Below are positions 22,276 to 40,298 of a DNA stretch of 57,586 nt, one piece after another. Source of the DNA: an uncultured bacterium (GTDB lineage Bacteria > Patescibacteriota > Patescibacteriia > Patescibacteriales > UBA12465); assembly GCA_903945435.1 (NCBI GenBank), contig CAJAVM010000021.1, positions 1-57,586 on the forward strand. The letters are read 5' to 3'. The position numbers and the translations under genes were made by a program. Below the pieces are notes generated by a model. That model saw only the letters and a list, made by a program, of their open reading frames with translations, was not told where the DNA came from and made no database searches. How positions within the stretch are numbered: position 1 is the first letter of the stretch; each line of letters begins with the position of its first letter.

Positions 22276-22325
22276 CAAATGTCTTCTTTGAAAGTGCCTT
22301 TGATTTAAACATATCCCCCAAAGAT

Positions 22326-22493: not shown

Positions 22494-22511
22494 TATATGC
22501 TAATATCTCTA

Positions 22512-22655: not shown

Positions 22656-22670
22656 ATTAACCTTAATTCT

Positions 22671-24194
22671 ATGCCAAAAGGAATTATATATTATCGGGTC
22701 TCAACCGAAGACCAAGCTCAAAATGGAGTCAGTCTTGAGCAACAGAAAAAAGCCTGTCTTGAGTATGCTCTTAATCACGATATAGAAATCACAAAACTAT
22801 TTCATGATGATGGCGTATCTGCTAAAACTACTAACCGCAAAGGACTGCAGGAATTATTAAGTTATTGCCAGAAAAATTATAGAAATATCGATTCAGTTAT
22901 TGTTTATAAAATAGACAGGCTCTCTCGTAATGTAAAAGACTACGCTACTATTTTAATGGCTCTTGAAGAATTACAAATTAAGTTTATCTCTGCTACTGAA
23001 ACGGTGGACAAAACACCAAGCGGAAAATTAATCGGCACTATTATGGCGTCATTTGCTCAATTTGATAATGATGTGAGAAGTGAAAGAGTGTCTTCCTGTA
23101 TGCTTGAGAAAATTAAACAAGGCATTTGGTGCTATAAAGCTCCTCTTGGTTATCTAAATAGCCGAGACGGTCAAAATAGAGCCGTTATAACGATAGATAA
23201 ACCAAGATCCGAGATTATTCAAATGGCGTTTAATAAATTCTCTAGCGGTGCTTATAGAATGGAAGAAATTAGACAGCTAATGATTAAAGCCGGATTCAAA
23301 TCTTGGAAGAATAAAGAACTAACTAGCCAAACTCTATTTAAAATATTAACCGAGAAATTCTATTTAGGAATAATGACTGTTAAAAGTGTTGAATATCAAG
23401 GCACTCATAAACCATTAATAGACGAATCAACTTTCTATAAATGCCAAAGACTAATTAAAACAGGAAACAAGGGCGACAATATTTCAGCTAGTACACCTAA
23501 TGAAACTTTTCCGCTCCGTCATTTTATATTATGTCCGCATTGTAATCGTCCAATAACCGCCTGTATGTCTAAAAGCAAAAGCGGAAAGCTATATCCGTTT
23601 TATAAATGCTATAACAAGGACTGTAAGGGCTTAAAATCAATTTCCAAAGATAAGTTAGAGGGAGAATTTTTTGATTACCTTATGAAAATAACGCCAAGTG
23701 AAAAGGCTTTAATGCTTTATAAAAAAGTCTTGCAAAGTGCAATAAAAGATATTAGTAGTTTATCAGTTGATAAGATTAAATTAGCTAAAGAAAAATTAAT
23801 AGAACTACAAAACGAAAAAGCCAAGCTAATTGAAATGAAGAAAAAAGAATTATTGGATGATGAAGATTTTAAAGACGAGATGGAAAAAATCAAAAACACT
23901 ATTTCAAATCAACAGGCTATCGTTTACGATCAGCCTAACTTGAATTTTAATATTACCAAAGAAGTAGATAAGGTCTTTAAAGTGTTAAGTAATCTTCCGG
24001 CTCTGTATAAAAAAGCCGATTATCAAGATAAATTAAAATTACAGAGTTTGATTTTTACCGAAAAACCAACTTTTAATTTTTCAATAAATCAAACACCTAA
24101 AATTTCACTAATTTTACAAAACAAAAGAGAACTAGCAAGTGCTAGTTCCCCGATAGTAGTCCCTAGGGGAATCGAACCCCTGTTAACAGGATGA
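22671..24194 (+). CDS. large serine recombinase (integrase)
   Basis: YYRVST (catalytic Ser), DDGVSA, DRLSRN, recombinase domain, CPHC..CYNKDC Zn ribbon, coiled coil; start placed at ATG 22671. Confidence 0.93.
   Translation: MPKGIIYYRVSTEDQAQNGVSLEQQKKACLEYALNHDIEITKLFHDDGVSAKTTNRKGLQELLSYCQKNYRNIDSVIVYKIDRLSRNVKDYATILMALEELQIKFISATETVDKTPSGKLIGTIMASFAQFDNDVRSERVSSCMLEKIKQGIWCYKAPLGYLNSRDGQNRAVITIDKPRSEIIQMAFNKFSSGAYRMEEIRQLMIKAGFKSWKNKELTSQTLFKILTEKFYLGIMTVKSVEYQGTHKPLIDESTFYKCQRLIKTGNKGDNISASTPNETFPLRHFILCPHCNRPITACMSKSKSGKLYPFYKCYNKDCKGLKSISKDKLEGEFFDYLMKITPSEKALMLYKKVLQSAIKDISSLSVDKIKLAKEKLIELQNEKAKLIEMKKKELLDDEDFKDEMEKIKNTISNQQAIVYDQPNLNFNITKEVDKVFKVLSNLPALYKKADYQDKLKLQSLIFTEKPTFNFSINQTPKISLILQNKRELASASSPIVVPRGIEPLLTG
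24123..24150 (-). terminator. element-supplied replacement terminator for tRNA-Glu
   Basis: gaactagc/gctagttc hairpin followed by ctcttttg on the minus strand, inside the recombinase CDS. Confidence 0.55.
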
Positions 24195-24228
24195 AAACCT
24201 GACGTCCTAACCACTAGACGAAGGGACC
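24157..24228 (-). tRNA. tRNA-Glu (TTC)
   Basis: ggtccct/agggact acceptor stem, anticodon loop ttttcat, gttcgattc T-loop; CCA not encoded. Confidence 0.93.
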
Positions 24229-24323
24229 AAATATGAATTGGCGAAAATAAAAATCTAATCTCTTAGATTTAAATCCATTTTATATAAAAAACCTCATTAT
24301 GTCAATGTTAATATTAATCTAAG

Positions 24324-24360
24324 AAAAAAGCCCCGGTTACCATGTGATAACCGAGGCCTT
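24324..24360 (-). terminator. terminator of the carbamoyltransferase operon
   Basis: cggtta/taaccg hairpin with an A run on the plus strand. Confidence 0.6.
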
Positions 24361-24370
24361 CAATAATACG

Positions 24371-25252
24371 CTATTCATAGCGTTCACGTTGTTGCTTCTT
24401 CTTATTGAAGCAGAAAGAAAGCTTTGAAACAACATGAGCAATGTCATGATTGTTCAAATCTTGTAATCTCCGATTTAACAATTTTGGGTTAACGTTCAAA
24501 CTTTTAACTGTTACAAATTCTTCAAAACCCATACCCTTGTGCTTTTTAGCTTTTTTGTTTACTCCCTCTAAAACTTGTACAAGCACAAACTTCAAATCAA
24601 CCGTAGGGGATTCAACAAAAAATTCGGCAAGTTTGTACAAAATAGGATGGGGCCTTTCTTTAGCTGTTAAATACATAACAACTGAACGCTCCCCTTCTTT
24701 GGGGAAGAAAGATTCCCTCTCAATATTCTTCACAAAATGAACATCGAACTTGGCTTGAGTCATCAAGCTAGTTTTGTTGAAATTGCTATCACCGATGCGA
24801 GAAGAACAATTTTCGTAGTACCTTCTTCCAATAATCATACTAACGATTTCCAATCCTTCAAAAGCATAGATTAATTGCAATAATGGCTCCAGAATACTGT
24901 AAGGAGGATTCATAACCAGCTTATTAACTTCTTGAGGCCATTCAATGTCGAGAGCTGAGCCCCAGATGACAGTCAATTGGTCTGGATATTTTTCTTGCAA
25001 TTCAGTCATGATACCTTCAAACCTGGTATCTAGCTCAATAACTGTAAGCTGTGCTCCTTTCAAAAGGATTGCTTCAGTTAACTGGCCAGGGCCTGGTCCT
25101 ATTTCCAAGACATGGTCTTGTGGTAGGACGTTAGCCGCTATCATAACTTCTTCAATCACCTCAGGGTTAACCATGAAGTGTTGATCCTTAAAATTACTAT
25201 CAGGCGTGATATCAAACCGTTCCAGTAATTTGATTAATTGTTCCTTGTCCAT
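24371..25252 (-). CDS. divergent KsgA/Erm-family RNA adenine methyltransferase
   Basis: DQHF, LEIGPGPG, IELD, NPPY; C-terminal half diverged from typical RsmA. Confidence 0.8.
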   Translation of the reverse strand: MDKEQLIKLLERFDITPDSNFKDQHFMVNPEVIEEVMIAANVLPQDHVLEIGPGPGQLTEAILLKGAQLTVIELDTRFEGIMTELQEKYPDQLTVIWGSALDIEWPQEVNKLVMNPPYSILEPLLQLIYAFEGLEIVSMIIGRRYYENCSSRIGDSNFNKTSLMTQAKFDVHFVKNIERESFFPKEGERSVVMYLTAKERPHPILYKLAEFFVESPTVDLKFVLVQVLEGVNKKAKKHKGMGFEEFVTVKSLNVNPKLLNRRLQDLNNHDIAHVVSKLSFCFNKKKQQRERYE

Positions 25253-25255
25253 TAT

Positions 25256-26083
25256 CTAATCTTTTATGCGTTTTACATAATAACCTATATGCAGTACTAC
25301 TTTCCAAAGCAGAAAGTATAACATTAGACTCAAACCACCCTCTTTATAAGCTGTTTTAAACCGACTCTTACGGTCAGTACAGAGAGAATGAATATCGTCT
25401 AAGAGGACACTCGGGATACGAAGTTTTTTTTGTTTATCTTTTGCTCCGTTTCCTTTTCCGATTTTAAAAGCAATTCTCAAATCATGAGCAATGCTTTCGC
25501 CACCATGTTGTATTTTTTCATCCAAGATAAAAAATTTTAGATTAGCTTTATGTAGTCTAATTGATAATTCTCCATCTTCGCCCCAAGCAACGACTTCATC
25601 AAAAAAGTATCCACCAATTTTTTGGCTAATTATTTTTTTAAATGAGAGTCCTGGGCCAAAGAATTTTTCTCCGTTATCAAAAACCTGATGAAACAATCTC
25701 CGGCATTCCGATACTAGTCTTTGTCGATAACTATCAAAAGAAAAAGCGACTTGTGCTTTCACAATTTCATATTCATCAAGTTTAAGACATAAATTATTTA
25801 GAAGCCCCGGTGCAAATAAGCAATCGGAATTAGTTAAAACTACTTTTTCATAAGTAGCCGCGCTAATTCCAATATTAAAAACTTTTGCTAAATTACAACC
25901 AGGACCATCTAAATAAATCGGTTTACACCTTTTATCATTTTCAACAATCTTGATAACTTCCTGAGATGGAAAATTATTTAAGACTACAACGACTTCAGCA
26001 ATAACATCGATGCTTTGAAGACATTCTCTAATCTTTAAATCTTTAGATACTGGAATAATAACGGAGAGATTAATTTTCTTCAT
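25256..26083 (-). CDS. GT2 glycosyltransferase
   Basis: SVIIP, NSD (DxD-like), WGED. Confidence 0.85.
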   Translation of the reverse strand: MKKINLSVIIPVSKDLKIRECLQSIDVIAEVVVVLNNFPSQEVIKIVENDKRCKPIYLDGPGCNLAKVFNIGISAATYEKVVLTNSDCLFAPGLLNNLCLKLDEYEIVKAQVAFSFDSYRQRLVSECRRLFHQVFDNGEKFFGPGLSFKKIISQKIGGYFFDEVVAWGEDGELSIRLHKANLKFFILDEKIQHGGESIAHDLRIAFKIGKGNGAKDKQKKLRIPSVLLDDIHSLCTDRKSRFKTAYKEGGLSLMLYFLLWKVVLHIGYYVKRIKD

Positions 26084-26096
26084 TGATTACTCCTCT

Positions 26097-26780
26097 CTAT
26101 AAATTTAACAATTTGTGATTAACCTTAATCACTTGAAATACTTCAACATAATCTCCTTTTCCGGAAACAACTCCTCGAAAACGATTTAAACCCAGCATCG
26201 CGTCACACCAGTTTTTTTGCTGTAGTTGAGAATTATAGATTGCCATAGCCGATTCTTTAAGCGAAATGAACTTGGTAATATCTACGGAAAGTTGATAAAT
26301 TTCCATAGGACGCCAAACTTCATAACCAAGAATCAATTCTGCAGCGGAAGCTTTATTTCCTAATTCAGGAAAATAATCTGATGAAGAAATCCACAAAGCT
26401 TCTTGAGCAACAGAATTAACAAAACGATGTTCACTATCACCATCGTTAATGTTAGGAATATAGACAATATTAGGGCGGACTGCACGCAAAGTGGAAATTA
26501 AAGATGCTACCACGGTCTCAGGATTGGGGAAGCTACGATCTTGAAAATTTAATTCAATAATCTTATCTACTCCCAATATTTTACCGGCTTCAGCTGCTTC
26601 TTTTTGAATAACTGCTACTGCTTCTTTTTTATCGCTCAGCCAAGGAATTCCTGACCAGCCAGAAGCAAAAAATACCACAGTTACTTCATTCCCCATGCTC
26701 TTTTGGAGACAAATGCTCCCTCCACATCCAATAACCTCGTCATCATGATGTGGTGAAATAACCATAACTTTTTTATTCAT
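26097..26780 (-). CDS. PIG-L/LmbE family N-deacetylase
   Basis: SPHHDDEVIGCGG, DSEH, YEVW, KESAMAIYNSQ. Confidence 0.88.
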   Translation of the reverse strand: MNKKVMVISPHHDDEVIGCGGSICLQKSMGNEVTVVFFASGWSGIPWLSDKKEAVAVIQKEAAEAGKILGVDKIIELNFQDRSFPNPETVVASLISTLRAVRPNIVYIPNINDGDSEHRFVNSVAQEALWISSSDYFPELGNKASAAELILGYEVWRPMEIYQLSVDITKFISLKESAMAIYNSQLQQKNWCDAMLGLNRFRGVVSGKGDYVEVFQVIKVNHKLLNL

Positions 26781-28462
26781 TGGCTTCTTTTTTTGATTAC
26801 AAAAGATTCAATTGCCAACACGTCCATACCGGTTTCAAAAAAAGTGCTCAAAGCATGAGCCGGAGTACAAACAATTGGCTCTCTTTCATTATTAAATGAT
26901 GTGTTCAAAACAATGGGCACGCCAGTTAACATTTGGAAGTTGCTCAATACGTCATAGAAATTTTTATTTAGAGCCGATGTTACTGTTTGAGGCCTAACCG
27001 AGTTATCAATATGAACTACGGCTGGTATCAAACTTGTCTTCTCAGCTTTCACAAAATTTCTAAATAACATATAGGGGGAGTGAGTCGGTAAAATAAAATA
27101 ATCATCATTTTCTTCGGCTAAAATTGCTGGGGCTAAAGGTCTCCACAACTCTCTGGATTTGATTTTATTAACAATCGTGTGATTATCAATTTTTCTCGGA
27201 TCAGCTAAAATACTTCTCCCTCCCAATGCACGAGGCCCAACTTCCATTCGGCCTTGAAAATAACCAACTATTTTACCCTGAACTAAATGCTTTGAAACTT
27301 CAAAGTTTACGTCCGATGATTCAGTAAAATTAATTCCTGATTTTATTAAACATTCACGAACTTCATCGTTGGTAAAACCAGGCCCTAAATAAGGACTAGT
27401 AAAAAAATTTACTGGTATAACATCGAGCATAGAGACTGCAGCGCCTAAAGCCACTCCGCTATCGTTAGCTGCCGGGTGGACAAAAACCTGTTCGGCTATT
27501 TTTCTTTCCATCAGCATGCCATTAGCAGAACAATTGAGCGTCGCTCCTCCAGCTAAACAAACCTGTTTAGCACCGGTAAGAGTAAGAGCGGTGTGAACAT
27601 ACCACATATACATCTTCTCAAATTCGAGTTGAATGGAAACCGCAATATCTTTTTCTCTTGCACCAAATGTGGGATTAGATTCAAAGCTTCCGTTCATTTT
27701 GTTAAACGAATAAGGAGCATTAATCTTATCGCCCCATTTTTTTACAAACACATCTACCCAATAGCGAATCATTGCTTCTTCCCAGTCTAAAATGTAATTC
27801 TGTTCTAATTTCATTTGAGAGAGATGAGAAGAAATTAAACTCGCGTCCCCAGTAAAGAAAACCGGATTATTACCATGACTGGCTAAACCCATTAATTTCC
27901 CTGCGTGATGGCGACTAAGTCCAATATACTCGCAAGCGGCAGCATAAAAGAATCCTGGCGAAAAAGGAACATTACAGGCTAACATTTTTTTAAGTTTACC
28001 TTGTTCTCCTTTGTAGATACTAACCGCGGAATCTTCCCCAGCGCCATCTAAAACAACGACTGCCATAGTCTCGTCATTAGAACGAGAACAATAAGCACTC
28101 GCGGCATGAGCGAAATGATGATCAACAAATTCGATAGGAATGTGTTTTGTTTTATTAGGGTAATACTTCTTGGGAAATAATATTGCATTCAAATCGCTTT
28201 CGCTAAAATCAAAGCTTCTCCCATGAAGTTCATGCAAAAGGGGTAAATTCCACCCCCAAGCAATCAAATCTACATCATTTGGCGATACATTCGCCGCCTG
28301 CAAACAGTAAGCAATCGAGTTCTTTGGCAAACAATCAAAAGCATGTTTCTGACGAGTAAAACGCTCTTCTTCAACATAGGCAATTAACTTACCATCTACA
28401 ATGATACAAGCCGAAGCATCATGGCTTCGCTCTATCCATCCATTAATTCCTACAATAATCAT
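26777..28462 (-). CDS. NodU/CmcH/TobZ-family carbamoyltransferase
   Basis: EEERFTR, HHFAHAASAY, DGAGE, GKLMGLA, GPRALGGRS, NTSFN; SD gaaaggag before ATG 28462. Confidence 0.93.
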   Translation of the reverse strand: MIIVGINGWIERSHDASACIIVDGKLIAYVEEERFTRQKHAFDCLPKNSIAYCLQAANVSPNDVDLIAWGWNLPLLHELHGRSFDFSESDLNAILFPKKYYPNKTKHIPIEFVDHHFAHAASAYCSRSNDETMAVVVLDGAGEDSAVSIYKGEQGKLKKMLACNVPFSPGFFYAAACEYIGLSRHHAGKLMGLASHGNNPVFFTGDASLISSHLSQMKLEQNYILDWEEAMIRYWVDVFVKKWGDKINAPYSFNKMNGSFESNPTFGAREKDIAVSIQLEFEKMYMWYVHTALTLTGAKQVCLAGGATLNCSANGMLMERKIAEQVFVHPAANDSGVALGAAVSMLDVIPVNFFTSPYLGPGFTNDEVRECLIKSGINFTESSDVNFEVSKHLVQGKIVGYFQGRMEVGPRALGGRSILADPRKIDNHTIVNKIKSRELWRPLAPAILAEENDDYFILPTHSPYMLFRNFVKAEKTSLIPAVVHIDNSVRPQTVTSALNKNFYDVLSNFQMLTGVPIVLNTSFNNEREPIVCTPAHALSTFFETGMDVLAIESFVIKKRSQ

Positions 28463-28666
28463 GGTTATATCTCCTTTCAATTTTAATTATTACTCATATA
28501 ATTGTTAACGTGCATTAATATAATTTTCCCTTATATTAACTAGTTACCCTACCATCAATTGTAATATTAGTCAACACAAAAAAATCCCCCAGAATTCTTT
28601 AAACTTAGTTAAATTATTAACTCAGTTCAAGTAATCCGGAGGATAAAGTAGTGAAAAAAATAATTA

Positions 28667-29338
28667 TTAAATTGATAAAATACGCTCTGGGGAAACCACG
28701 CGATAATTGTACTCTCCGTGCCACACGTTACCATGTCGCAGCGGCTCTGCTCCAATCCGTAAACCGCCAAAGTAAACATAAACACCAGCAACAATGAAGT
28801 CATTCTCTGGTTTAATTATGTTAACTGGAGTAGATTCATCCTTTTTAATAAGAAAAAAAGTTCCGTTACCATTTTGTCTCAACCAATCAGGATATACTTC
28901 ACAAAATTCAATGACTTGATTTTGCGAAAGCCATTTCTCATTCCAGTTTCCTGGTAGAGCACTAAAAATATCTAGCGCCGTTCCTTTCTTAATCATTTCA
29001 TGCACTTGGATGCTTGTTTCAAGAGTAGAAATACCTGGATTATTTGTTCCCCATTTAACAAAATCCTGGTCAATACACTGCACAAAAGTCTTGTCGGCGT
29101 CATAAATAAGACGACTACCATCCAAGGCTCTTAGTGCTAGGGAGCAATTACTAGAAATTAGTCGAAGAATTTCTCCGGCAACTTGAGAGGTAATTCTTCT
29201 TTTTAAAAAGTCATCTAATTCCTCTTCCGTAGAGTAAATTAATTTCTGGAGAGCTTTGTAAAACAATGATTCTCCATCTTTAATTTTCTCAACAAGCATC
29301 TCGTTGATAAGGCCAAACTCCGTGTTTTCCATTTTCAA
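28667..29338 (-). CDS. hypothetical protein
   Basis: 223-aa ORF followed by a long terminator-like hairpin (about 28578-28644). Confidence 0.75.
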   Translation of the reverse strand: MKMENTEFGLINEMLVEKIKDGESLFYKALQKLIYSTEEELDDFLKRRITSQVAGEILRLISSNCSLALRALDGSRLIYDADKTFVQCIDQDFVKWGTNNPGISTLETSIQVHEMIKKGTALDIFSALPGNWNEKWLSQNQVIEFCEVYPDWLRQNGNGTFFLIKKDESTPVNIIKPENDFIVAGVYVYFGGLRIGAEPLRHGNVWHGEYNYRVVSPERILSI

Positions 29339-29365
29339 TTTTGTTGTTAAGGTGTGGTGTTTATT

Positions 29366-30040
29366 TTATTTTTTCTTAGTAGACTTTAAAATTAATTCTT
29401 TTCTTTCTGATTTCCAAATTATTTTATGCAATTGTATGCCAATGCGTACCTGTAAATCATCCTCCAATACCCATTTAGCTAACTTGTCAGCTTTTACTCC
29501 TCCAATCGGAGAAAAAATAATATTAGTTTTACCAACAATATTATATTTAGCAATTACATCTTTAGCAAACTGATAATCAAGCCTGCTCTTCATAATAAAC
29601 TTAACCTGGTCTTTTGGTTTAAGCGCTTTTAAATTATCAAAATGCATACTCTTATGCATCAAGGAGCTGGGGCATTTAATATCTAAAGAATAGAGAACAT
29701 TATTAGAATTAGGAAATTTTGTAATATCCATCGATCCGTTAGTTTCAATATCAATCTTAAAACCAGCTTTTAATAAATCCTCCATTAATATTTTAGTATT
29801 GACCTGGCTAAGTGGTTCTCCGCCGGTAATACAAATAAACTTTACTCCTTGTAATTTAGATTCTTCAACTAAATTACTAATACTAATCGACTCCCCTTTG
29901 CCATAAGCATATTTAGTATCACAATAGGAACAGCGTAAGTTGCACCCAGCTAACCTAATAAAAAACGTAGGTAAACCAGAATGAATACCTTCGCCCTGAA
30001 TAGACTTAAACTTCTCAATGATGTTAATTGTTTTTTCCAT
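29366..30040 (-). CDS. queE: 7-carboxy-7-deazaguanine synthase (radical SAM)
   Basis: SIQGEG, CNLRCSYCDT, TGGEPL, ETNG, QLHK. Confidence 0.93.
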   Translation of the reverse strand: MEKTINIIEKFKSIQGEGIHSGLPTFFIRLAGCNLRCSYCDTKYAYGKGESISISNLVEESKLQGVKFICITGGEPLSQVNTKILMEDLLKAGFKIDIETNGSMDITKFPNSNNVLYSLDIKCPSSLMHKSMHFDNLKALKPKDQVKFIMKSRLDYQFAKDVIAKYNIVGKTNIIFSPIGGVKADKLAKWVLEDDLQVRIGIQLHKIIWKSERKELILKSTKKK

Positions 30041-30374
30041 AGTATGTTACATAACTATCGGGGGTCTCCCAAAGTTCTATTTTATAAATAGGCAAATCTT
30101 TTTCTAAATGTTCCCAAATCCATACAGCCATATTTTCTGCGGTTGGCTGTTTAATTATATCGTTAATATAACTATGATCTAAAATATCCAACACCTTCTT
30201 CTCAACTATCATTTTAATAGCACTGAAATCAAAAACCATTCCTGATTTTTTATCAACATTTCCTTTTAAAGTCACATTGAGTAAGTACGTGTGTCCGTGT
30301 AAAAACTGACACTTTCCTTTATAATTGATTAGCTTATGGGCTGAATCAAAAGAAAACTTTTTAGTTATCAACAT
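30024..30374 (-). CDS. queD: 6-carboxytetrahydropterin synthase
   Basis: FDSAH, CQFLHGHTY, LDH, PTAEN, WET; start placed at ATG 30374. Confidence 0.93.
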   Translation of the reverse strand: MLITKKFSFDSAHKLINYKGKCQFLHGHTYLLNVTLKGNVDKKSGMVFDFSAIKMIVEKKVLDILDHSYINDIIKQPTAENMAVWIWEHLEKDLPIYKIELWETPDSYVTYYGKNN

Positions 30375-30387
30375 ATTAATTTCTTTT

Positions 30388-31161
30388 TTATTTTTCATTG
30401 ATAATGATGGCATAAGCGTTATGACTATGAATTGATTCAAAACTTAAACATTTAATAATATAATCTTCGACTCGTTTATCTTTTCTTGCCCAAACTCCAA
30501 TTTCTCTTACAATATCTTCTACAAACATGGGATTCTCATACATTTTTTCCGTAACATATTTCTCATCGACGCGTTTTAATAAAGAAAATAATTCACAGCT
30601 AGAACTTTTTTCAATTACTTTTATTAATTCATCGATATTGATATATTGATGAGATTTAATTCGTAAAGAAACTTCTGCTCTTTGATTATGAGCTCCATAA
30701 CGACTAATCTCCTTGCTGCAAGGACATAATGTAGCAATCGGGACCTTCACTTGAAAGTAGCTAATAATTTGATTTAACTCAGTTAATTCGTATTCGATTT
30801 TACATTGATAACTCATTGAAGAAGGTTTTCCAGATACTGGTGCTTTTTTGTTTAAAAAATATGTAAAATCAAAACTAATCTTTGAGGTTTTAGATTCAAG
30901 TTTATTTTTAATATTCTTTGAAGTAGCGATTAATAATTTTTCATTCAACTCCTTATCTTTAATTTGATAAGCAATTTGAGAAAACCGACTCATGTGAGTT
31001 CCCTTTAGGGTCGCGTCCAAATCTACTCCCATAGCCACGGTCGCAACTATTAATTGTTTTTTGGCGCCAGCACCAAAAAACAGAGGAATATTTACACCCG
31101 AGATACCAACTTCACTAATTTTTAAATTCCGACTATCTTTTTCTTTTTGAATATCTTTCAT
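30388..31161 (-). CDS. folE2: GTP cyclohydrolase IB
   Basis: GTHMSRF, TLCPCSKEIS, GAHNQR, FVED, ESIHSHNA. Confidence 0.94.
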   Translation of the reverse strand: MKDIQKEKDSRNLKISEVGISGVNIPLFFGAGAKKQLIVATVAMGVDLDATLKGTHMSRFSQIAYQIKDKELNEKLLIATSKNIKNKLESKTSKISFDFTYFLNKKAPVSGKPSSMSYQCKIEYELTELNQIISYFQVKVPIATLCPCSKEISRYGAHNQRAEVSLRIKSHQYINIDELIKVIEKSSSCELFSLLKRVDEKYVTEKMYENPMFVEDIVREIGVWARKDKRVEDYIIKCLSFESIHSHNAYAIIINEK

Positions 31162-31177
31162 ATATTTCTATATAAAA

Positions 31178-31612
31178 TTAATTTAAATCTTTAGATAAAA
31201 ACATGGCGATTTCGTTGCCGGTATTATCATAATACCGATCATTAAAACCGCAAATTCTAAAACCATTTTTTAAATAAGCAATTAAAGCATTGCTTAAAGA
31301 AGGTGCCTCAGCCATAACCGTTCTCGCTTTAATAGCCTTAGCTTCCTTAAGAATTTTTTTAATCAACTGTGTTCCATAACCATTTTTCCGAAAATTAGGA
31401 TGAACAAATATATCTATTACTGAGGCGGAATTATTCCAGGCATAATAATGAAAACCGCTAAATCCAACAATCTTATTCTCTTCGACTCCTACATAAAAAT
31501 AGTCATGACTACCTTCAATAATCTTTTTAAAATCTCTAATCTCTTTAAAATATTTATCATTCAAACGGTTAATTTCCGGGAGGTCTTTAATTGTTGCTCT
31601 TAATATTTTCAT
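31178..31612 (-). CDS. GNAT acetyltransferase
   Basis: VHPNFRKNGYG acetyl-CoA motif, YLKNGF. Confidence 0.88.
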   Translation of the reverse strand: MKILRATIKDLPEINRLNDKYFKEIRDFKKIIEGSHDYFYVGVEENKIVGFSGFHYYAWNNSASVIDIFVHPNFRKNGYGTQLIKKILKEAKAIKARTVMAEAPSLSNALIAYLKNGFRICGFNDRYYDNTGNEIAMFLSKDLN

Positions 31613-31616
31613 AAAT

Positions 31617-32021
31617 TTATATTAATTTTTCTATTGCCGAAAAATAGACTCTATTAAACCACTCTACCGTATCCAGTTCTATAATTTCTCTTAATGTAAA
31701 AAATCTTATCTCTTGCCCCTCTTTTAAAAATATACTTTTTATATCGCCCTTATAAAGCAGAGAATAAATAAAATGGCGATATATTTTGTTGTCTCCCGTA
31801 TCTTCAATTTCGTTAATAAATATCGGGTCTATATCTAAACCAAGCTCTTCCTGAACTTCTCGTTTTATACATTCCAGGGATGATTCGCCTAACTCTTTAC
31901 TACCACCAATAACTCCCCATTTTGCGGAACCGTTAATCTTAGGGTTTTTATCTCGTAATTGCAATAGTACCCGATTTTTATCGTCTAAAATTAAAACTTC
32001 GCACACTTCTATAATTTCCAT
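31617..32021 (-). CDS. NUDIX hydrolase
   Basis: GGSKELGESSLECIKREVQEELG Nudix box. Confidence 0.92.
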   Translation of the reverse strand: MEIIEVCEVLILDDKNRVLLQLRDKNPKINGSAKWGVIGGSKELGESSLECIKREVQEELGLDIDPIFINEIEDTGDNKIYRHFIYSLLYKGDIKSIFLKEGQEIRFFTLREIIELDTVEWFNRVYFSAIEKLI

Positions 32022-32022
32022 C

Positions 32023-33192
32023 TTATTTTATAATTACTCTATCAATCTCTAACTTCCTTCGCTCGACAGCATGGAGAGTATTAATAGATAAATTATTATA
32101 AAACACACTTAAATAACCGGGAACAATATCTAGAGATTTTTCTACTGCGATAATAAAATCTAATTTATTATTTCTAGCCATCTTACCAGCTTTAATTCTA
32201 GGAATCCAAACATTTTTAATTAATCCAGCCGGATCTTTGAGCGGATTAATTTTTACTTTTCCCTTTAAATCATAGCCTCCGGCTAATAAATAAACCGCCC
32301 TCTTAAGACAAGCATCACATTTACCACAACCACCGCCATAATAACAAGTAATCGTATCAAACGGACTAATTTTATATTTCTTTTCCCAATTTTTACGCCA
32401 ATATGAAATTATTTCAGATTTTGAATAAGCCTTAAAAGGCGAACCAGCTTTAATTATATTATTAGATTCTAGAGAGAAGAAATAAGAGGCTTTATCAAAA
32501 AAATATTGACTCTTATCCTTATTCTTACGAAAACCCATTTCATCTTTATGGGCACATAAATAAATATATTTTTTTGACAATTGAGAAAATTTTAAAATTG
32601 AATTTGCTAAACTTAAAAATAAAAAATTTCTTCCAGGAATAATAAAATCCCAATCTTTCCATCCGCGTAAGATATCTTTCTTCAAATTAATTTTTAAAAT
32701 TAACGGTTTGATCTTTAGCTTACCAGCAATTTTGTTGACTGCCTGATGCTCGGCGCTATTATTTCTTTGACCAAAATCTAGCCATAAAGGTAGAACCTCA
32801 ATATTTTTATCAAAAGCATAAAGTAGTCCAGCTGTACTATCCAGCCCGCCACTAAAATTTAACACCGCCCCAACATTTTTTAATGTATCAGTATTATAAT
32901 CAGAATTTTTAATTAACTCTGGAGCTGCTTTTAATTGTTTTAATCTAATATTGAATTTCATCGGCGCAATCCGATGATTTATAATATATGAGAGGAAGGA
33001 ATTTAATTTATTAACATTAATTTTTTTAGAGAAAATATCATTCAGCAATATACCATTACTTTTATTATATCCAGCTAACACGGTTAAGATAGCTAACTTA
33101 GTAAAATTATCCAAGAATACACTATTAAAACCGAGGCTTTTACTATCTATCAATATATCTCCCTGAGTTTTTTTGATGTTTCCAATTTTCAT
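32023..33192 (-). CDS. queC: QueC-family ATP pyrophosphatase with N- and C-terminal extensions
   Basis: SGGLDS PP-loop, FGQRN, IPGRNFLF, CYYGGGCGKCDAC Zn site; 389 aa. Confidence 0.8.
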   Translation of the reverse strand: MKIGNIKKTQGDILIDSKSLGFNSVFLDNFTKLAILTVLAGYNKSNGILLNDIFSKKINVNKLNSFLSYIINHRIAPMKFNIRLKQLKAAPELIKNSDYNTDTLKNVGAVLNFSGGLDSTAGLLYAFDKNIEVLPLWLDFGQRNNSAEHQAVNKIAGKLKIKPLILKINLKKDILRGWKDWDFIIPGRNFLFLSLANSILKFSQLSKKYIYLCAHKDEMGFRKNKDKSQYFFDKASYFFSLESNNIIKAGSPFKAYSKSEIISYWRKNWEKKYKISPFDTITCYYGGGCGKCDACLKRAVYLLAGGYDLKGKVKINPLKDPAGLIKNVWIPRIKAGKMARNNKLDFIIAVEKSLDIVPGYLSVFYNNLSINTLHAVERRKLEIDRVIIK

Positions 33193-33193
33193 A

Positions 33194-33913
33194 TTATTTT
33201 TTTGCTATCCACCACAAACGATGTGTTCGTAAAATGATTCCTCTTTTTTGATGCATTAATTCAATCTTTCTTAAATATTGTGCATCTTGCTTTTTATCAA
33301 AGTCGGCAATAATAGGCGTTCTTTCTAAAGTTCTTATTACGGCATTAGTAGAAGAAAATCTCTGATAATATACAAAGTCTTCCAATAAAACTTTTTGAAG
33401 TTTAAACTTATCAAACAGCTTTTGTACCGATTCTCTTTTTTTTATAAAGTATGGAAAATTTTGACCTCGATTAAAAATCTTTTTTAATTCTATTTTATCA
33501 GTTTCACCAATAGTCTCTTCAATTAAGAGTCCATTCTTTTTTAAAACCCTCAAAGCCTCTTTAAAAAAAAACGAGTTGGCGGATACTGGGCCACGAGAAC
33601 TATAAACAACATCAAACGTCTCGTCTTTAAAAGATAACTTTCGACCATCTTGAATTTTAAACAATACATTTTCTATATTTTGATTCTTTTTATCTTTATT
33701 GGCAGTTTTGATATAATCTACAAAACAATCAACACCAATTATTTTTTTACAATAGCGAGATACTTGGATTGTAAGCTCACCAGATCCGCAACCTAAATCC
33801 AGAACAACAAAATCTTTCTTAATATTTTTAATTAATAATTTAAAAAATACTGGCTTATTACCCGCAACCACCTTAGCACCTGACTTAAACTTATACCTAC
33901 TAAATTGTTTCAT
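33194..33913 (-). CDS. class I SAM methyltransferase
   Basis: VLDLGCGSG, FDVVYSSRGP, LRVLKKNG. Confidence 0.88.
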   Translation of the reverse strand: MKQFSRYKFKSGAKVVAGNKPVFFKLLIKNIKKDFVVLDLGCGSGELTIQVSRYCKKIIGVDCFVDYIKTANKDKKNQNIENVLFKIQDGRKLSFKDETFDVVYSSRGPVSANSFFFKEALRVLKKNGLLIEETIGETDKIELKKIFNRGQNFPYFIKKRESVQKLFDKFKLQKVLLEDFVYYQRFSSTNAVIRTLERTPIIADFDKKQDAQYLRKIELMHQKRGIILRTHRLWWIAKK

Positions 33914-33940
33914 CTTATATTACACAAAATAATTAGCTCA

Positions 33941-33969
33941 ACCATACAACAAAAAGTTATTTCTGTCAA
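33941..33969 (-). promoter_or_regulatory. sigma70-like promoter of the deazapurine operon
   Basis: Minus strand ttgaca-17 bp-tatggt. Confidence 0.55.
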
Positions 33970-33972
33970 AAA

Positions 33973-34563
33973 TTATAATTTATCATTATAATTTGTGACC
34001 ATCATGTCTGCTAAATTGTAGACATTAACAAAACGACTATCTTCTGAAGCGTTATCACCTTCTTCATAACCTAGCTCTACACCATATACCGCGAACTTCT
34101 CATTAGATATCCAATAGGCCCCACTAAAACTACAGGCGGTTCCGCACTGAGTGACCACATAGACCTTGTTTATTTTTAAGTCCCACAAAGAAACCGTCAT
34201 ATCCGGTTCGCTAGTAGATATTTCTAAAACATGAGTACCATCTGGGCTGGTTTTTATTGTCTCTTCATAGGAGGGCGGGTCTGACTTAAAAAATATAGGG
34301 CTACCATCAACCTGGAAGTAGGGATTAACAACAGATAAGCCTGCATCATCAGCCATATTGATCAAAAATAAATCAGCTAAAGAAAATTCTCGGCTGGAAA
34401 TCAAATGATATTTATCGGCCCCTGGTAATTCAGAGAAATCTCGATTTTGTAGTATTTCGATTGAGGATTTCGGAATTTTAATTCCATCTTTATAAAAAAA
34501 GACGAAAAATAGTATTCCCGTCGCAAAAATTACCACCAATAATATTTTAAAAATATTTTTCAT
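33973..34563 (-). CDS. membrane-anchored hypothetical protein
   Basis: N-terminal TM; SPDG and beta-rich segments, CGTAC. Confidence 0.7.
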   Translation of the reverse strand: MKNIFKILLVVIFATGILFFVFFYKDGIKIPKSSIEILQNRDFSELPGADKYHLISSREFSLADLFLINMADDAGLSVVNPYFQVDGSPIFFKSDPPSYEETIKTSPDGTHVLEISTSEPDMTVSLWDLKINKVYVVTQCGTACSFSGAYWISNEKFAVYGVELGYEEGDNASEDSRFVNVYNLADMMVTNYNDKL

Positions 34564-34633
34564 ATCATTATCTATTATCTATTTAAATAATAGCACTATT
34601 TGTCTTTTTTCAAAAATAACCTACAATACATAT

Positions 34634-35680
34634 ATGTATATTTTGGGTATAGAAACTAGTTGCGACGAAACCGCCGCCTCAATAATTAAAGCCGACAAAA
34701 AAACCGGCAAGGTTATTGTTTTGTCTAATATCATTTCTTCGCAAATAGAAATTCATCAAAAGTATGGAGGTGTTGTTCCGGAGGTTGCCGCCAGAGAACA
34801 CGTGCTTAATATTTTACCAGTTATTGACGAAGCTTTATCTAAAGCAAAAATAAGTAATAAAAAACTAGATTTAATCGCTATAACCAAAGGGCCCGGACTT
34901 ATCACATCTCTCATGACAGGAATGGAGACTGTCCGCACGCTAGCTTTTGCTTGGGATAAACCAGTAATTGAAGTAAACCACATTGAGGGTCATATTTATT
35001 CTAATTTTATAAATCCAGAAAGTAAGATTAATTTTCCGGCTATTATTTTAACTGTTTCTGGAGGACATACCAATTTAGTTCTCATGGATAAAACTAGAAA
35101 GATAAAAATCATTGGCGAGACTTTAGATGATGCCGCTGGTGAAGCATTTGATAAAGGCTCAAAAATGATGGAGCTCGGATACCCTGGCGGTCCTATTATC
35201 TCCAAGTACGCTGAACAGTATCAACAAAAAAATGTTTTAAACAATGTTAGTGATATCAAGCTTCCTCGCCCAATGTTAAATTCCAATAATAACAACTTCT
35301 CTTTTTCCGGCCTCAAGACAGCCTTGCTATATCAATTACAAAAAGATGATAGCTGGACCAAACGCATAGATGAATACTGTTTTGAATACCAACAAGCAAT
35401 TATCGACGTACTAATAGGTAAAACTATAAAAGCAGCTCAAAAAACTGGCGCAAAAACTGTGATGCTCTCTGGGGGAGTAAGCGCTAATCGCGCCTTGCGG
35501 GCTTGTTTAAAAACGGCAGTAAACCAAAAACTTACAAAAGTAAATTTTCTAGTTCCCGCACATGAATATACAACTGATAACGCAGCCATGATTGCAACCG
35601 CTGGATTTTTTACTTCACTAACAGGTAAATTAACTAATTTTACTAAATTAAGAGTTAACCCCAGTTTACAACTTAAATAA
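34634..35680 (+). CDS. tsaD: tRNA t6A threonylcarbamoyltransferase
   Basis: LGIETSCDET, GGVVPEVAAREH, NHIEGH, SGGHT, DDAAGEAFDK, TDNAAMIA. Confidence 0.96.
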   Translation: MYILGIETSCDETAASIIKADKKTGKVIVLSNIISSQIEIHQKYGGVVPEVAAREHVLNILPVIDEALSKAKISNKKLDLIAITKGPGLITSLMTGMETVRTLAFAWDKPVIEVNHIEGHIYSNFINPESKINFPAIILTVSGGHTNLVLMDKTRKIKIIGETLDDAAGEAFDKGSKMMELGYPGGPIISKYAEQYQQKNVLNNVSDIKLPRPMLNSNNNNFSFSGLKTALLYQLQKDDSWTKRIDEYCFEYQQAIIDVLIGKTIKAAQKTGAKTVMLSGGVSANRALRACLKTAVNQKLTKVNFLVPAHEYTTDNAAMIATAGFFTSLTGKLTNFTKLRVNPSLQLK

Positions 35681-35717
35681 GATAAGCTAAAATCCAATTA
35701 TTGATATCATGAGGTAT

Positions 35718-35794
35718 GGCTTGATGGCGAAGTGGTCTAACGCTGCAGTTTGCAAAACTGCCATTCGTGGGTTCGACTCCCACTCAAGCCTCCA
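35718..35794 (+). tRNA. tRNA-Cys (GCA)
   Basis: Anticodon arm gcagt-ttgcaaa-actgc, gttcgac, encoded CCA; terminator at 35795-35824. Confidence 0.94.
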
Positions 35795-36005
35795 AAAAAC
35801 CCTTAATTTTTATTAAGGGTTTTTGTTTACTGTCACCAATTATATTCACGGCTAAAACTTGACGAAACCTGTGGATAACTTGTGTTACAAGTGCATAAAT
35901 TCATTTTTTTAGTCTAAGATATAGTGGACTTAACTTTTCAAATTTTTAGAATATTGATTAATATTAGCTAAATATTATAAAATAATGGATTTAAGTCCAC
36001 AATAC

Positions 36006-36034
36006 TTGACCACTATTTTTTAAAGTGCTATTAT
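36006..36034 (+). promoter_or_regulatory. sigma70-like promoter
   Basis: ttgacc-17 bp-tattat with extended -10 TG. Confidence 0.65.
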
Positions 36035-36039
36035 TATAG

Positions 36040-36378
36040 TAGGTTCTTTAACTAACTCCTTACATCCTTATGCCAATGCTGACGTGGCAAGGAATCCCCG
36101 AGCAATACAAAACTAGCGTGCTAATAAAAAAGAAATAAGATTTAATAAAAGTCAAAAAGAAATTTTTACTAAATCTCATTGAAAATTAGCAAAAATAATT
36201 AAAATATTAAGTTTTAACATGCTAGGAGTTGGTACAAGATACGCTCTTAAGTCAGCAAGTAGCTTCAAATTCCCTAATGATACCAAAAAATGTGCATCAT
36301 GAGGGATGAGGCTCAGACGATGGCCCAGTATTTATTAATTTTATATAATAAAAAGAGGCCCGTTCTGGGCCTCTTTTT
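36040..36378 (+). ncRNA. candidate large structured ncRNA (raiA-like)
   Basis: Promoter, several long-range stems, a 7-bp loop pseudoknot and terminator aaaaagaggccc/gggcctctttt; no credible CDS. Confidence 0.6.
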
Positions 36379-36451
36379 ATTTTCAAAAAACTCCTGTATA
36401 TTAGAACCGTAATTGATGAGCCTTTTATAAGTAGGCTCCATTCTAAAAAAT

Positions 36452-37516
36452 ATGGCATTATCAATCGGAATTGTTGGCCTGCCTAACGTGGGCAAATCAA
36501 CTCTATTTAACTTATTAACCAAAAAGGGCGTTGAAGCGGCTAACTATCCTTTTTGTACCATAGACCCAAATGTTGGCGTGGTTAAAGTCCCGGACGCTCG
36601 CTTAGAAAAACTAGCCGAAGTTTCTAAACCTAAAAAAATCATTCCCACGACTATTGAGTTCGTTGATATTGCTGGTTTAGTCGCTGGAGCAAGCAAGGGC
36701 GAAGGTCTAGGGAACCAATTTCTTGCTCATATCAGAGAGTGTAATGCGATTTGTGAAGTAATTAGAGATTTTAAAGATAAAAATATTATTCATGTTAACG
36801 GGAAGATAGACCCCGCTGATGATAAGGAAACAATTAACATGGAGCTCATCTTTGCAGATTTAGCAACCGTTGAAAAAAGACTAGATAGAATGAGACGCGA
36901 TGTGAAGAGTGGTGACAAGGAAATTAAAAACAACTTGATAGTACTAGAAAAAATCTTTGCTCAACTCAGCGCCGGGAAAGCAGTAAGAGAATTAGAATTC
37001 GAAGAAGAAGATTTAGTCTTTGTTAAAAGTTTAAGTTTATTAACAATTAAACCAATTCTCTATCTTCTAAACACCGATGAAGAAACAGCTGGCGATGTGC
37101 TTCCAGGGACTAATGAAGAAATCATCAATGTCAATGTAAAACTTGAAGAAGAAATTGTTAATTTACCAGAAGAAGACCAAGCAGAATATATTAAAGAACT
37201 CGGGCTATCACAAAGCGGGCTTGATAGACTTATCCAAAGTGCTTACAAACTACTTGGCCTAGATACTTTTTTTACAACTGGACCAGATGAGACTAGGGCG
37301 TGGACTATCAAAAAAGGCTCTAAAGCCCCTCAAGCCGCCGGAGAAATCCACACTGATTTTATTAAAGGCTTCGTTCGTGCTGAAGTTATTAACTGGGAAA
37401 AGTTTATTGAATGTGGTTCAGAAGGAAAAGCTAAAGAACTGGGCCTGATGAAAATTGAAGGCAAGGAATACATTGTACAAGATGGTGATGTCTGTAATTT
37501 TTTGATTAATAAATAA
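36452..37516 (+). CDS. ychF: redox-regulated ATPase YchF
   Basis: [41 protein letters not shown] domain. Confidence 0.96.
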
Positions 37517-37534
37517 GCTTTCAAGACAATACAA

Positions 37535-37565
37535 AAAAACCGCCCCTACTTAGGGGGCGGTTTTT
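37535..37565. terminator. bidirectional terminator
   Basis: aaaaaccgcccct...gggggcggttttt between convergent genes. Confidence 0.8.
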
Positions 37566-37586
37566 AAATTGAATTTAATATAAGTA

Positions 37587-38780: not shown

Positions 38781-38835
38781 ATAAAACTATCATAACCCGC
38801 CCTCTTGCTTTTTGCAAATATCTATGTTAAAGTCC

Positions 38836-38985
38836 TTATACAAATAAATAATAACGATATCTTTCCCATGTTTCAGCCTTGTTGCTGAAATAATTCTGCT
38901 AATACTAGTAGAATTAAAGGTATTCTAAGCCCCAAAGGTTCTTGGAATACTTGGGGATTTTATTTAAATATCGGATTTTGTATAA
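38836..38985 (+). promoter_or_regulatory. multibranched structured leader upstream of rpsF
   Basis: Closing stems ttatacaaa/tttgtataa, cgatat/atatcg and ttccca/tgggga enclose three hairpins. Confidence 0.55.
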
Positions 38986-39044
38986 TTTAGCGATTTTTTA
39001 AAAATCGTTTAAATTGGCTTTATCCCTTAAGTATTATAATAAAT

Positions 39045-39569: not shown

Positions 39570-39618
39570 TAATCCTGCTTCCGCCGCTTGCGGCTGGACT
39601 TAGGATTTGTCCAACAAT

Positions 39619-40056: not shown

Positions 40057-40068
40057 TAATTAATAAAT

Positions 40069-40281
40069 ATGAACAATAAGAAAACAAAAGAATGCTACTT
40101 TTGCGTTAATAACCTAGAAGTAGATTATAAAGATACCAGAACTCTAAAACGTTTTATTAACTTTTACATGAAGATTCTTCCTGGAAAAAGAACTGGCGTT
40201 TGTGCTTGGCATCAAAGAAAATTAGCAACTGCTATTAAACGTTCTCGTGTAATGGCCCTTTTATCTGCTACTCATAAATAA
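40069..40281 (+). CDS. rpsR: 30S ribosomal protein S18
   Basis: CYFC, DYKD, KILP..RTG.CAWHQR, AIKRSR. Confidence 0.94.
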   Translation: MNNKKTKECYFCVNNLEVDYKDTRTLKRFINFYMKILPGKRTGVCAWHQRKLATAIKRSRVMALLSATHK

Positions 40282-40298
40282 GCTTAACGATAAAACCT

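Follow-up and report, generated by a model that had tools for sequence, protein, structure and literature searches.

7-Deazaguanines are known as bases of tRNA and DNA and from a small number of actinomycete antibiotics; to these, protein tags that serve in phage defence have been added since 2025. By the established enzymology of their families, FolE2, QueD and QueE lead from GTP to 7-carboxy-7-deazaguanine (CDG). A different logic is found in the biosynthesis of mycothiol and bacillithiol, in which a glycosyltransferase acts first, followed by a PIG-L/LmbE deacetylase and by an ATP-dependent ligation to the freed amine. Among the QueC-family enzymes described beyond the tRNA pathway, RoyL, the deazapurine amide-bond synthetase of roseomycin A, couples adenylated CDG with amino acids, according to the available text of a preprint (bioRxiv 10.64898/2026.04.15.718813), and QatC carries extensions that are required for defence and whose C-terminal helices form the QatB-binding surface in the crystal structure (available text of PMC13279940). 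The present text concerns an accessory island at 24371-33913 of contig CAJAVM010000021.1, from an uncultured member of the Patescibacteriota; the whole contig, of 57,586 nucleotides, is referred to as the window. The island comprises 12 genes in two tight blocks and encodes an extended QueC-family protein, here termed QueCx. Judged from sequence, there is about an even chance that it represents a dedicated pathway to a 7-deazaguanine glycoconjugate, independent of tRNA queuosine.

A previous sequence-only reading of this DNA had delimited seven genes, from a methyltransferase to queE. These open reading frames (ORFs) are borne out, since they lie head to tail on the minus strand over 29366-33913 and Pfam and NCBIfam back each name, but they make up only half of the unit, which extends down to 24371. 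The features of the island and its two borders are the following, proteins being given in amino acids (aa) and S-adenosylmethionine as SAM:

33973..34563, minus strand: membrane-anchored hypothetical protein, 196 aa, right border, native and outside the island
33194..33913, minus strand: SAM-dependent methyltransferase of 239 aa, which opens the island (Pfam Methyltransf_31/25/11, 59-66 bits; Methyltransf_11, 59.2)
32023..33192, minus strand: QueCx, 389-aa QueC-family PP-loop ATPase with N- and C-terminal extensions (Pfam QueC, 79.7 bits)
31617..32021, minus strand: NUDIX hydrolase, 134 aa (Pfam NUDIX, 49.7 bits)
31178..31612, minus strand: GNAT N-acetyltransferase, 144 aa (Pfam Acetyltransf_1, 57.4 bits)
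30388..31161, minus strand: GTP cyclohydrolase FolE2 (Pfam GCHY-1, 272.7 bits; NF010200, 253.4 above the cut-off of 215)
30024..30440, minus strand: QueD, 6-carboxytetrahydropterin synthase (Pfam PTPS, 125 bits; TIGR03367, 105.3 above the cut-off of 89.25)
29366..30040, minus strand: QueE-type radical SAM enzyme, CDG synthase (TIGR04349, 219.9 bits, and TIGR03963, 207.2 bits, both below cut-off; Pfam Radical_SAM, 57.3)
28667..29338, minus strand: hypothetical protein, 223 aa, inside the island, with no Pfam, NCBIfam, PADLOC or PHROG match
26777..28480, minus strand: O-carbamoyltransferase of the TobZ/NodU type, 567 aa (Pfam Carbam_trans_N, 138.5 bits, and Carbam_trans_C, 209.5 bits)
26097..26780, minus strand: PIG-L/LmbE-family N-acetyl-sugar deacetylase, 227 aa (Pfam PIG-L, 81.4 bits)
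25256..26083, minus strand: family 2 glycosyltransferase (GT2) of GT-A fold, 275 aa (Pfam Glycos_transf_2, PF00535, 28 bits)
24371..25252, minus strand: KsgA/Erm-like N-methyltransferase paralogue of 293 aa, which closes the island (Pfam RrnaAD, 96.9 bits)
24156..24228, minus strand: tRNA-Glu(TTC), left border

From the methyltransferase on, the seven genes of the que block are spaced by gaps of 1, 1, 4 and 16 bp and then by two overlaps; the TTG start listed for QueD overlaps FolE2, and the real start is probably located downstream of it. In NCBIfam, the GNAT protein weakly matches RimI and streptothricin acetyltransferases, in each case under cut-off. The two blocks are parted by a gap of 186 bp (28481-28666). 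The stated lack of a preQ1 riboswitch is upheld by an Rfam scan of 23500-35000, in which no family but tRNA reached E<=1. As for the single promoter proposed upstream of the methyltransferase, a TTGACA-17-TATGGT match is indeed present at 33969-33941, but promoter-like matches are not enriched in the region with respect to shuffles (40 observed versus 43.5, standard deviation 7.4).

The limits of the island were defined by comparison with close relatives. TsaD was located in 24 of the 26 genomes of the genus (that of the window, G000, included), and its flanks were compared in six close relatives. The region 24156-40956 of the window has a collinear counterpart in G013, with 83-86% identity. 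In G010, which has no island, 125 bp separate tRNA-Glu from TsaD, and in G005 and G004, also without the island, the interval holds only a homologue of the 196-aa membrane protein (44% identity). In G017, G015 and G007, TsaD was found with no tRNA-Glu match, and two of these three stop at a contig end; all three are uninformative. Since tRNA-Glu and TsaD are adjacent or separated by one native gene in the nearest relatives devoid of QueCx, the segment 24229-33972 forms a single insertion or deletion of 12 genes with respect to them. The 196-aa membrane protein had been considered as a member of the cluster and was rejected, because relatives that lack the island carry it natively.

On the other side of the bordering tRNA-Glu lies a mobile element (16553-24194) that encodes Abi_2, a trypsin-like protein, Rep (REP_ORF2-G2P) and a large serine recombinase of 533 aa, the gene of which overlaps tRNA-Glu with its 3' end. 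An 87-bp remnant of the recombinase is present at tRNA-Glu in G005, whereas in G017 both Rep and the recombinase are encoded at a distance of ~14 kb from TsaD. A direct-repeat search for the attachment sites of this element returned only AT-rich chance matches.

The QueC domain of QueCx spans residues ~105-300 of 389 and is extended at both ends, and the protein remains under the QueC equivalog cut-offs (TIGR00364, 69.5 versus 150.3; NF008317, 44.7 versus 378; 389 aa versus ~220). The AlphaFold2 (AF2) model built with 22 homologues (pLDDT 92.6, pTM 0.91) superimposes on QatC (9y02_B) in VIA-align with Z 24.3 and a root-mean-square deviation of 3.4 Å over 319 residues (model 5-363), followed by Cap9 (Z 15.5), QueC (Z 14.6 and 14.3) and other PP-loop enzymes (below 10). 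The N-terminal strands and helices of the model, together with its C-terminal helices, match the extensions of QatC. By sequence, QueCx is nearer to QueC and Cap9, with a profile value of 1.8e-19 against Bacillus subtilis QueC and of 0.004 against QatC. Models of QatC itself give 18 bits (NF041925, cut-off 280) and 17.7 bits (PADLOC QatC, E 3e-4), the 63.3 bits obtained with the PADLOC 'QueC' model reflect the shared core only, and the ESM Atlas returned only QueC-family and hypothetical clusters.

The motifs of QueCx were checked against the catalytic signature given for canonical QueC (PF06508 cluster 1) in the available text of PMC13329287. The ATP loop SGGxDS is kept, S114-G-G-L-D118-S119 being invariant in the 22 homologues, as are the VPxRN loop, in the form I-P186-G-R188-N189 with invariant P, R and N, and the zinc site (C283, C289, C292 and C295, all invariant), which is spaced as C(x)5CxxCxxC instead of the canonical C(x)8CxxCxxC. 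The YxQxHxxE motif is changed to F140-G-Q142-R-N144-x3-E148, with His replaced by Asn and one residue added; the resulting F-x-Q-(x)5-E spacing is that of the Cap9 variant described in the same available text. YPDC is lost, as it falls on x-x-D226-K227 in the profile alignment to B. subtilis QueC, and the tyrosine of this motif is reported to be essential in Escherichia coli QueC, where Y131A is inactive for Q formation (available text of PMC13329287). For RoyL, the residues described as touching the incoming amine are Tyr41, His45 and Glu48, and those described as touching the adenylated CDG are Arg104, Asn105 and Asp132 (available text of bioRxiv 10.64898/2026.04.15.718813). We infer that these contacts may correspond to the YxQxHxxE, RN and D positions. 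If they do, QueCx would keep the contacts to CDG-AMP and have a changed amine pocket.

Regarding the genomic background, the window corresponds to contig C21 in an assembly of 0.98 Mb with 97.4% completeness. The assembly encodes a canonical Tgt on C8 (Pfam 345.7 bits; TIGR00430, 341.9 above the cut-off of 306.75), which is its only TGT-family (PF01702) match, together with QueA on C24 (439.3 bits), QueH on C23 (204.1 bits) and, elsewhere in the genome, two Vut_1 (YhhQ-type) transporters. QueF (PF14489, TIGR03139) was not found in this 97.4% complete genome, where no match is not proof of absence. QueCx is the only QueC of the genome; another PF06508 match, below threshold (21.4 bits), belongs to a 372-aa ORF on C3 that we tentatively take to be MnmA. 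As an observation on its own, QueH forms the C-terminal part of a 521-aa ORF (G000 C23, L006 1495-3060, minus strand), in an unusual fusion whose N-terminal 330 residues are those of a WecA/MraY-type polyprenyl-phosphate sugar-phosphate transferase with many membrane helices.

The statement that the window contains no Tgt, DpdA or QueF holds, as the sole TGT-family gene is on another contig and QueF was not found in the genome. Extending the search for the three genes to the genome yielded tgt on C8, no QueF and no DpdA: there is no TGT-family gene near the cluster and none in L011-L017, and the sole PF01702 match of the genome is an equivalog-level tRNA Tgt. The sequence-only reading had conceded that a canonical Tgt elsewhere might account for the use of preQ0. 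Such a Tgt does exist, but its distribution is independent of the cluster: among the 41 genomes of the order (G000 included), Tgt is present in 39, QueF in none and QueCx in two (G000 and G013). With Tgt in 39 genomes and QueCx in two, the housekeeping Tgt does not account for the cluster. Overall, the lineage gives the impression of salvaging queuosine precursors, with the cluster as a rare extra. In the seven other species genomes with QueCx, whose completeness is not stated, a TGT family protein is present in three and absent from four, and QueD is present in four and absent from three. In terms of INDEPENDENCE from nucleic-acid insertion, no QueCx locus carries a TGT-family gene. The proposal of an undescribed deazaguanine pathway with tailoring enzymes, running through none of Tgt, DpdA and QueF, is thus strengthened by the four of seven other holders that have no TGT-family gene.

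QueCx is rare and widely scattered. A word-indexed search recovered 48 full-length-type homologues at 37-100% identity, plus four distant QueC proteins; an exhaustive profile search of 1.84 billion cluster representatives recovered 44 at E<=1e-30; and 400 other genomes sampled evenly across the phylum gave no QueCx match at E<=1e-20. Pattern scans provided eight loci in species genomes, titled Falkowbacteria, Saccharibacteria (two), Gracilibacteria, Woesebacteria (two) and Patescibacteria (two), and 56 in metagenome contigs. Leaving out eight distant loci (L066-L073, ~25% identity), L064 and L065 (fragments of less than 100 bits) and 12 near-identical duplicates resulted in 43 deduplicated loci, of which 21 are well flanked, with at least 3 kb on each side.

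In these 21 well-flanked loci, which stem from diverse Patescibacteria, the partners of QueCx are PIG-L (17), GT2 (16), the carbamoyltransferase (14) and the KsgA/Erm-like (RrnaAD) methyltransferase (13, a count that leaves out the canonical KsgA of L013), followed by an aminopropyl-type transferase of the BpsA_C family (12) and SAM decarboxylase (8). Any of FolE, FolE2, QueD and QueE is present in 10, Vut_1 in eight, and either of the two in 18. Homologues of the NUDIX, GNAT and methyltransferase proteins of the window appear in three, three and two of the 21 loci and in 10, six and five of the 43, and they occur in a sub-clade whose QueCx is 52-85% identical to that of the window; L013 and L016 contain unrelated NUDIX genes (Pfam). 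The methyltransferase is regarded as a clade-specific tailoring enzyme, and the GNAT protein is clade-specific as well. These two belong to one sub-clade only (5/43 and 6/43), and the widely kept partners lie outside the range originally delimited. Conservation of the seven-gene order is likewise restricted to the sub-clade: MTase-QueCx-NUDIX-GNAT-FolE2-QueD-QueE recurs in L010 and L020, and partially in L011, L019, L025, L032 and L041. The 223-aa protein adjoins QueCx only in the window and in its close relative L010 among the 43 loci, and its look-alikes in the ESM Atlas are hypothetical proteins of Minisyncoccota.

In genomes without QueD, the cassettes carry the Vut_1 transporter and/or a 108-aa T-fold protein. 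Since these versions bring a transporter and/or a T-fold protein in place of QueD, the cassette can be described as one that makes or imports 7-deazaguanine and always keeps QueCx. The T-fold protein (108-110 aa), which has weak similarity to QueF-II/FolE (26 bits), is encoded in seven of the 43 loci: L013 (15491-15817), L012, L015, L022, L029, L047 and L048, most of them with Vut_1 and without queD or queE. It may process an imported precursor of the preQ0 type.

Other loci show lineage-specific additions. The cassettes of Woesebacteria (L016, 15017-16790; L017, 15073-17122) contain two APH-family kinases. Since L017 additionally encodes a second nucleotide-sugar transferase, an FAD oxidoreductase and a DegT aminotransferase, the sugar of this lineage may be a different one. 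The L014 operon has an MFS transporter inside. Gene fusions, read with translation table 11, join an N-terminal GT-A-like region (~440 aa) to QueCx in L037, L039, L040 and L043 (819-846 aa), QueCx to a C-terminal histidine phosphatase (His_Phos_1) in L042, L050 and L051 (579-580 aa), and GT2 to NUDIX in L026 (431 aa); QueCx fusions are also seen among the cluster representatives (P0055, P0056, P0059 and P0067). Two further fusions, RrnaAD-QueE and X-carbamoyltransferase, which appeared in L014 when read with code 25, were rejected as artefacts, the TGA codons being real stops; this locus, titled Gracilibacteria, reads cleanly with the standard code, and its organism does not appear to use code 25.

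With respect to the partner enzymes encoded in the window, the carbamoyltransferase matches TobZ end to end among the structures of the PDB (7.2e-109, residues 7-564) and has a weak TsaD match in Pfam. Among solved structures, the PIG-L protein comes closest to diacetylchitobiose deacetylase and BshB, which remove acetyl from N-acetylglucosamine (GlcNAc) glycosides. The AF2 model of the glycosyltransferase (pLDDT 86.6) shows a generic GT-A fold, with WrtF at Z 21 and TarP and TarS at ~18.8; the neighbours retrieved by the fold search are all of generic GT-A type, differ from one another by no more than ~2 Z units and give no clue to the acceptor. The N-termini of the GT2 proteins run straight into the first strand, without a free glycine tail, and a complex prediction of QueCx with the GT2 of the window scored 0.01, a value that weighs on neither side as regards binding. 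The KsgA/Erm-like protein stands between the two models and under both cut-offs (ksgA, 99.7 versus 171; Erm, 86.3 versus 212), and it is regarded as a paralogue because a canonical KsgA (205 bits) is encoded on contig C1. It keeps the GxGxG SAM loop and the N-x-P-(Y/F) motif of amino-methyltransferases and has a C-terminal part of its own. For the proteins of the island, PADLOC and PHROGs gave nothing beyond generic domain matches.

In the pathway considered here, FolE2, QueD and QueE would convert GTP into CDG, and QueCx would act as a CDG-activating ligase, by which CDG is adenylated and then transferred to an amine. That QueCx hands adenylated CDG to an amine in the manner of RoyL, Cap9 and QatC, instead of stopping at preQ0, is put forward tentatively, with the balance leaning somewhat against it. 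Based on family chemistry and conserved synteny, the GT2 enzyme would add an N-acetyl-hexosamine, the PIG-L protein would strip the acetyl group and free the amine, and the TobZ-like enzyme would O-carbamoylate the sugar. In the preferred version, which resembles the logic of mycothiol and bacillithiol, QueCx would join CDG to the sugar amine freed by PIG-L, as the most economical acceptor; in the alternative one, preQ0 would be turned into an N-glycoside like huimycin. Tailoring of the product, or protection of the producer, would then fall to the KsgA/Erm-like and SAM methyltransferases together with GNAT and NUDIX. A bolder version, which we consider unlikely, would make QueCx the founder of a third deazaguanylating branch of QueC, in which CDG is joined to the free amine of an amino sugar that has been deacetylated and carbamoylated (and, in other lineages, extended by a polyamine) to give a nucleobase-aminoglycoside hybrid of ultra-small episymbionts, with the Erm/KsgA-like methyltransferase, GNAT and the APH kinases of Woesebacteria as self-resistance against a ribosome-directed compound. 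If true, no specialised antibiotic pathway would have been traced to Patescibacteria before this one.

Several observations weigh against the glycoconjugate pathway. The locus counts are descriptive only, given that the loci are related and not independent and that numerous contigs are short. Neither GT2 nor PIG-L nor carbamoyltransferase is present in four of the 21 well-flanked loci (L011, L017, L037 and L043), and the sugar module is thus not universal. The two blocks of the island, 186 bp apart, differ in G+C content (~0.36-0.38 for the carbamoyltransferase, PIG-L and GT2 genes, and ~0.29-0.31 for the que genes). BLASTP found no significant similarity between the GT2 of the window and the GT-A-like domain fused to QueCx, and the fusions therefore tie QueCx to glycosyl transfer in general and not to this particular GT2. 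QueCx may still make preQ0, given that it retains most core motifs of QueC and that the genome has no other QueC. The QatC-like fold of the model could point to a protein substrate instead.

These points lead to the rival explanations. If QueCx were still a preQ0 synthase, the island could resemble the pathways of huimycin and dapiramicin: the SAM methyltransferase would O-methylate preQ0, GT2 would N-glycosylate its 2-amino group with GlcNAc, the sugar would be deacetylated and carbamoylated, and the KsgA/Erm-like methyltransferase and GNAT would confer self-resistance. The combination of preQ0 core genes, a PF08241-type methyltransferase and a glycosyltransferase follows the logic of huiB-huiG, a carbamoyltransferase gene is located directly after huiG in Kutzneria, although it is dispensable for huimycin (available text of PMC7439116), and SGGxDS, the RN loop and the zinc site are kept in QueCx. 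However, HuiG belongs to PF13439 (GT4) and not to GT2, according to the available text of the genome-mining preprint cited above, the methyltransferase is found in only five of the 43 loci, and QueCx has no YPDC and lies under the QueC equivalog cut-off. Moreover, the Vut_1 cassettes of QueD-less genomes keep QueCx, which is hard to explain for an enzyme that is a preQ0 synthase only, and a pathway of this type is accordingly regarded as a doubtful candidate. An ordinary supply of preQ0 for tRNA queuosine, feeding Tgt, QueA and QueH, with QueF unassembled or divergent and the neighbouring genes unrelated, would agree with the presence of these three proteins (Tgt at equivalog level) and with QueCx as sole QueC homologue. 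It has little probability in view of the distribution in the order (QueF 0/41, Tgt 39/41, cluster 2/41), the four of seven other holders without TGT and the two Vut_1 transporters elsewhere, which could salvage precursors; in addition, the 12 genes are gained or lost as a block, and they recur with sugar-tailoring genes in distant lineages.

The other two alternatives place the deazaguanine or its partners on a macromolecule. In a system like Qat or type IV CBASS, QueCx would deazaguanylate a protein, in defence or regulation, and the island would carry the CDG supply that its host cannot make. The whole architecture of QatC is shared, including the C-terminal helices that hold QatB (available text of PMC13279940), F-x-Q-(x)5-E equals the Cap9 variant (available text of PMC13329287), and the island is rare, patchy and located at a tRNA beside an element with a serine recombinase and Abi_2. 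Nevertheless, neither Pfam nor PADLOC revealed QatA, QatD, a CD-NTase or Cap10 among the neighbours over 24371-34563, and QatB, for which there is no Pfam model, was judged only by the lack of a conserved unknown neighbour across loci. QueCx obtains 18 bits (cut-off 280) and E 3e-4 with the QatC models, its conserved partners are sugar enzymes of the small-molecule kind, and the GT2 N-termini have no free glycine tail. The defence-related modification envisaged in the sequence-only reading has gained the QatC-like fold and nothing else in its favour, and we deem it very unlikely. Alternatively, the KsgA-like enzyme, the carbamoyltransferase (as one of Kae1/YrdC type) and GT2 could act on a polymer, hypermodifying RNA or a cell-envelope glycan. 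The N-x-P-(Y/F) motif kept by the methyltransferase is that of nucleic-acid amino-methyltransferases, the carbamoyltransferase has its weak TsaD match, and the fold neighbours of GT2 include the wall-teichoic-acid enzymes TarP and TarS. Against this stand the lack of a base-insertion enzyme with the cassette, and of one in the genomes of four of seven holders, the MFS transporter inside the L014 operon and the small-molecule enzyme TobZ as best match of the carbamoyltransferase, all of which make action on a polymer highly improbable.

If the island does encode a glycoconjugate pathway, it would add a fourth setting for 7-deazaguanines, in the form of a compact, horizontally moving pathway in genomes of ~1 Mb that otherwise salvage queuosine precursors. 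QueCx would bridge the metabolic QueC enzymes and the defence enzyme QatC, and it would provide a system in which to study how larger amines come to replace ammonia as the nucleophile on the QueC scaffold. Should the product be bioactive, it would also bear on how episymbionts treat their hosts. Away from the island, the window contains a PLD-like gene beside a patatin-like phospholipase gene (11041-12930); the former is kept in G010, G005 and G004, and the latter was seen in G010.

Nothing relevant was found in the literature on 7-deazaguanine together with both carbamoyltransferase and QueC, nor, judging by titles and abstract openings among the papers listed, on deazaguanine together with Patescibacteria. 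In the main texts, as available, of the 2026 QueC-family network paper and of the 7-deazapurine genome-mining preprint, the terms Patescibacteria, carbamoyl and deacetylase have 0 occurrences, although the supplements may list such clusters. According to its available text, the preprint set aside clusters in genomes with a tRNA transglycosylase (bioRxiv 10.64898/2026.04.15.718813), and it would have missed the genome of the window, which holds Tgt. Known kinds include deazapurine clusters that contain tailoring enzymes, and ligases derived from QueC; what is new is the present combination, its QatC-shaped enzyme and its hosts.

Compared with known systems, the island is close in gene content to the huimycin cluster huiA-huiG of Kutzneria albida and to the proposed dapiramicin clusters. 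Both comprise a GTP cyclohydrolase, QueD, QueE, a QueC homologue, a SAM methyltransferase and a glycosyltransferase, both are devoid of a nucleic-acid insertion enzyme, and a carbamoyltransferase gene adjoins huiG (available text of PMC7439116). They differ in the glycosyltransferase (PF13439/GT4 for HuiG, as given in the available sources, and PF00535/GT2 in the island), in the LuxR regulator described for huimycin, of which none was seen over 24371-34563, and in the hosts, which are actinomycetes in one case and Patescibacteria in the other. The PIG-L deacetylase, the KsgA/Erm-like methyltransferase and the 389-aa QatC-shaped QueC homologue without YPDC are found only in the island. With regard to the toyocamycin/tubercidin type, as far as the available descriptions go, NUDIX is common to the tubercidin family and the island, whereas no phosphoribosyltransferase (PF00156) match was obtained among the island proteins.

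RoyL, in the available text of the preprint, is a divergent QueC beside CDG-forming genes that uses an amine other than ammonia, which is the chemistry proposed for QueCx. It clusters, however, with ATP-grasp, TauD and desaturase genes and not with sugar enzymes, and no QatC-like extensions are mentioned in that text. With QatC and Cap9, which act in protein deazaguanylation in QatABCD and in type IV CBASS, respectively, QueCx has in common the QatC fold and the Cap9-like motif, and it retains the RN loop and the zinc site. The VPxRN-type loop present in QueCx is reportedly lost in QatC, and the neighbours of QueCx are genes for CDG synthesis and sugar tailoring, with no qatA (KAP ATPase), qatD (TatD), CD-NTase or TGT-like Cap10. 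In relation to the canonical preQ0 pathway, FolE2, QueD and QueE of the island are typical of their families, with QueCx linked to queD and queE, but the cluster is not co-distributed with Tgt, QueF was not found in the genome and the motifs of QueCx are altered. Finally, the island recalls the logic of aminoglycosides, bacillithiol and mycothiol, given that a glycosyltransferase, PIG-L and a TobZ-like enzyme recur with an enzyme of the ATP-dependent ligase type, in likeness to MshB/MshC, BshB/BshC and the sugar steps of streptothricin. It would depart from bacillithiol and mycothiol in that its ligase would belong to the QueC family and the acyl group would be a nucleobase.

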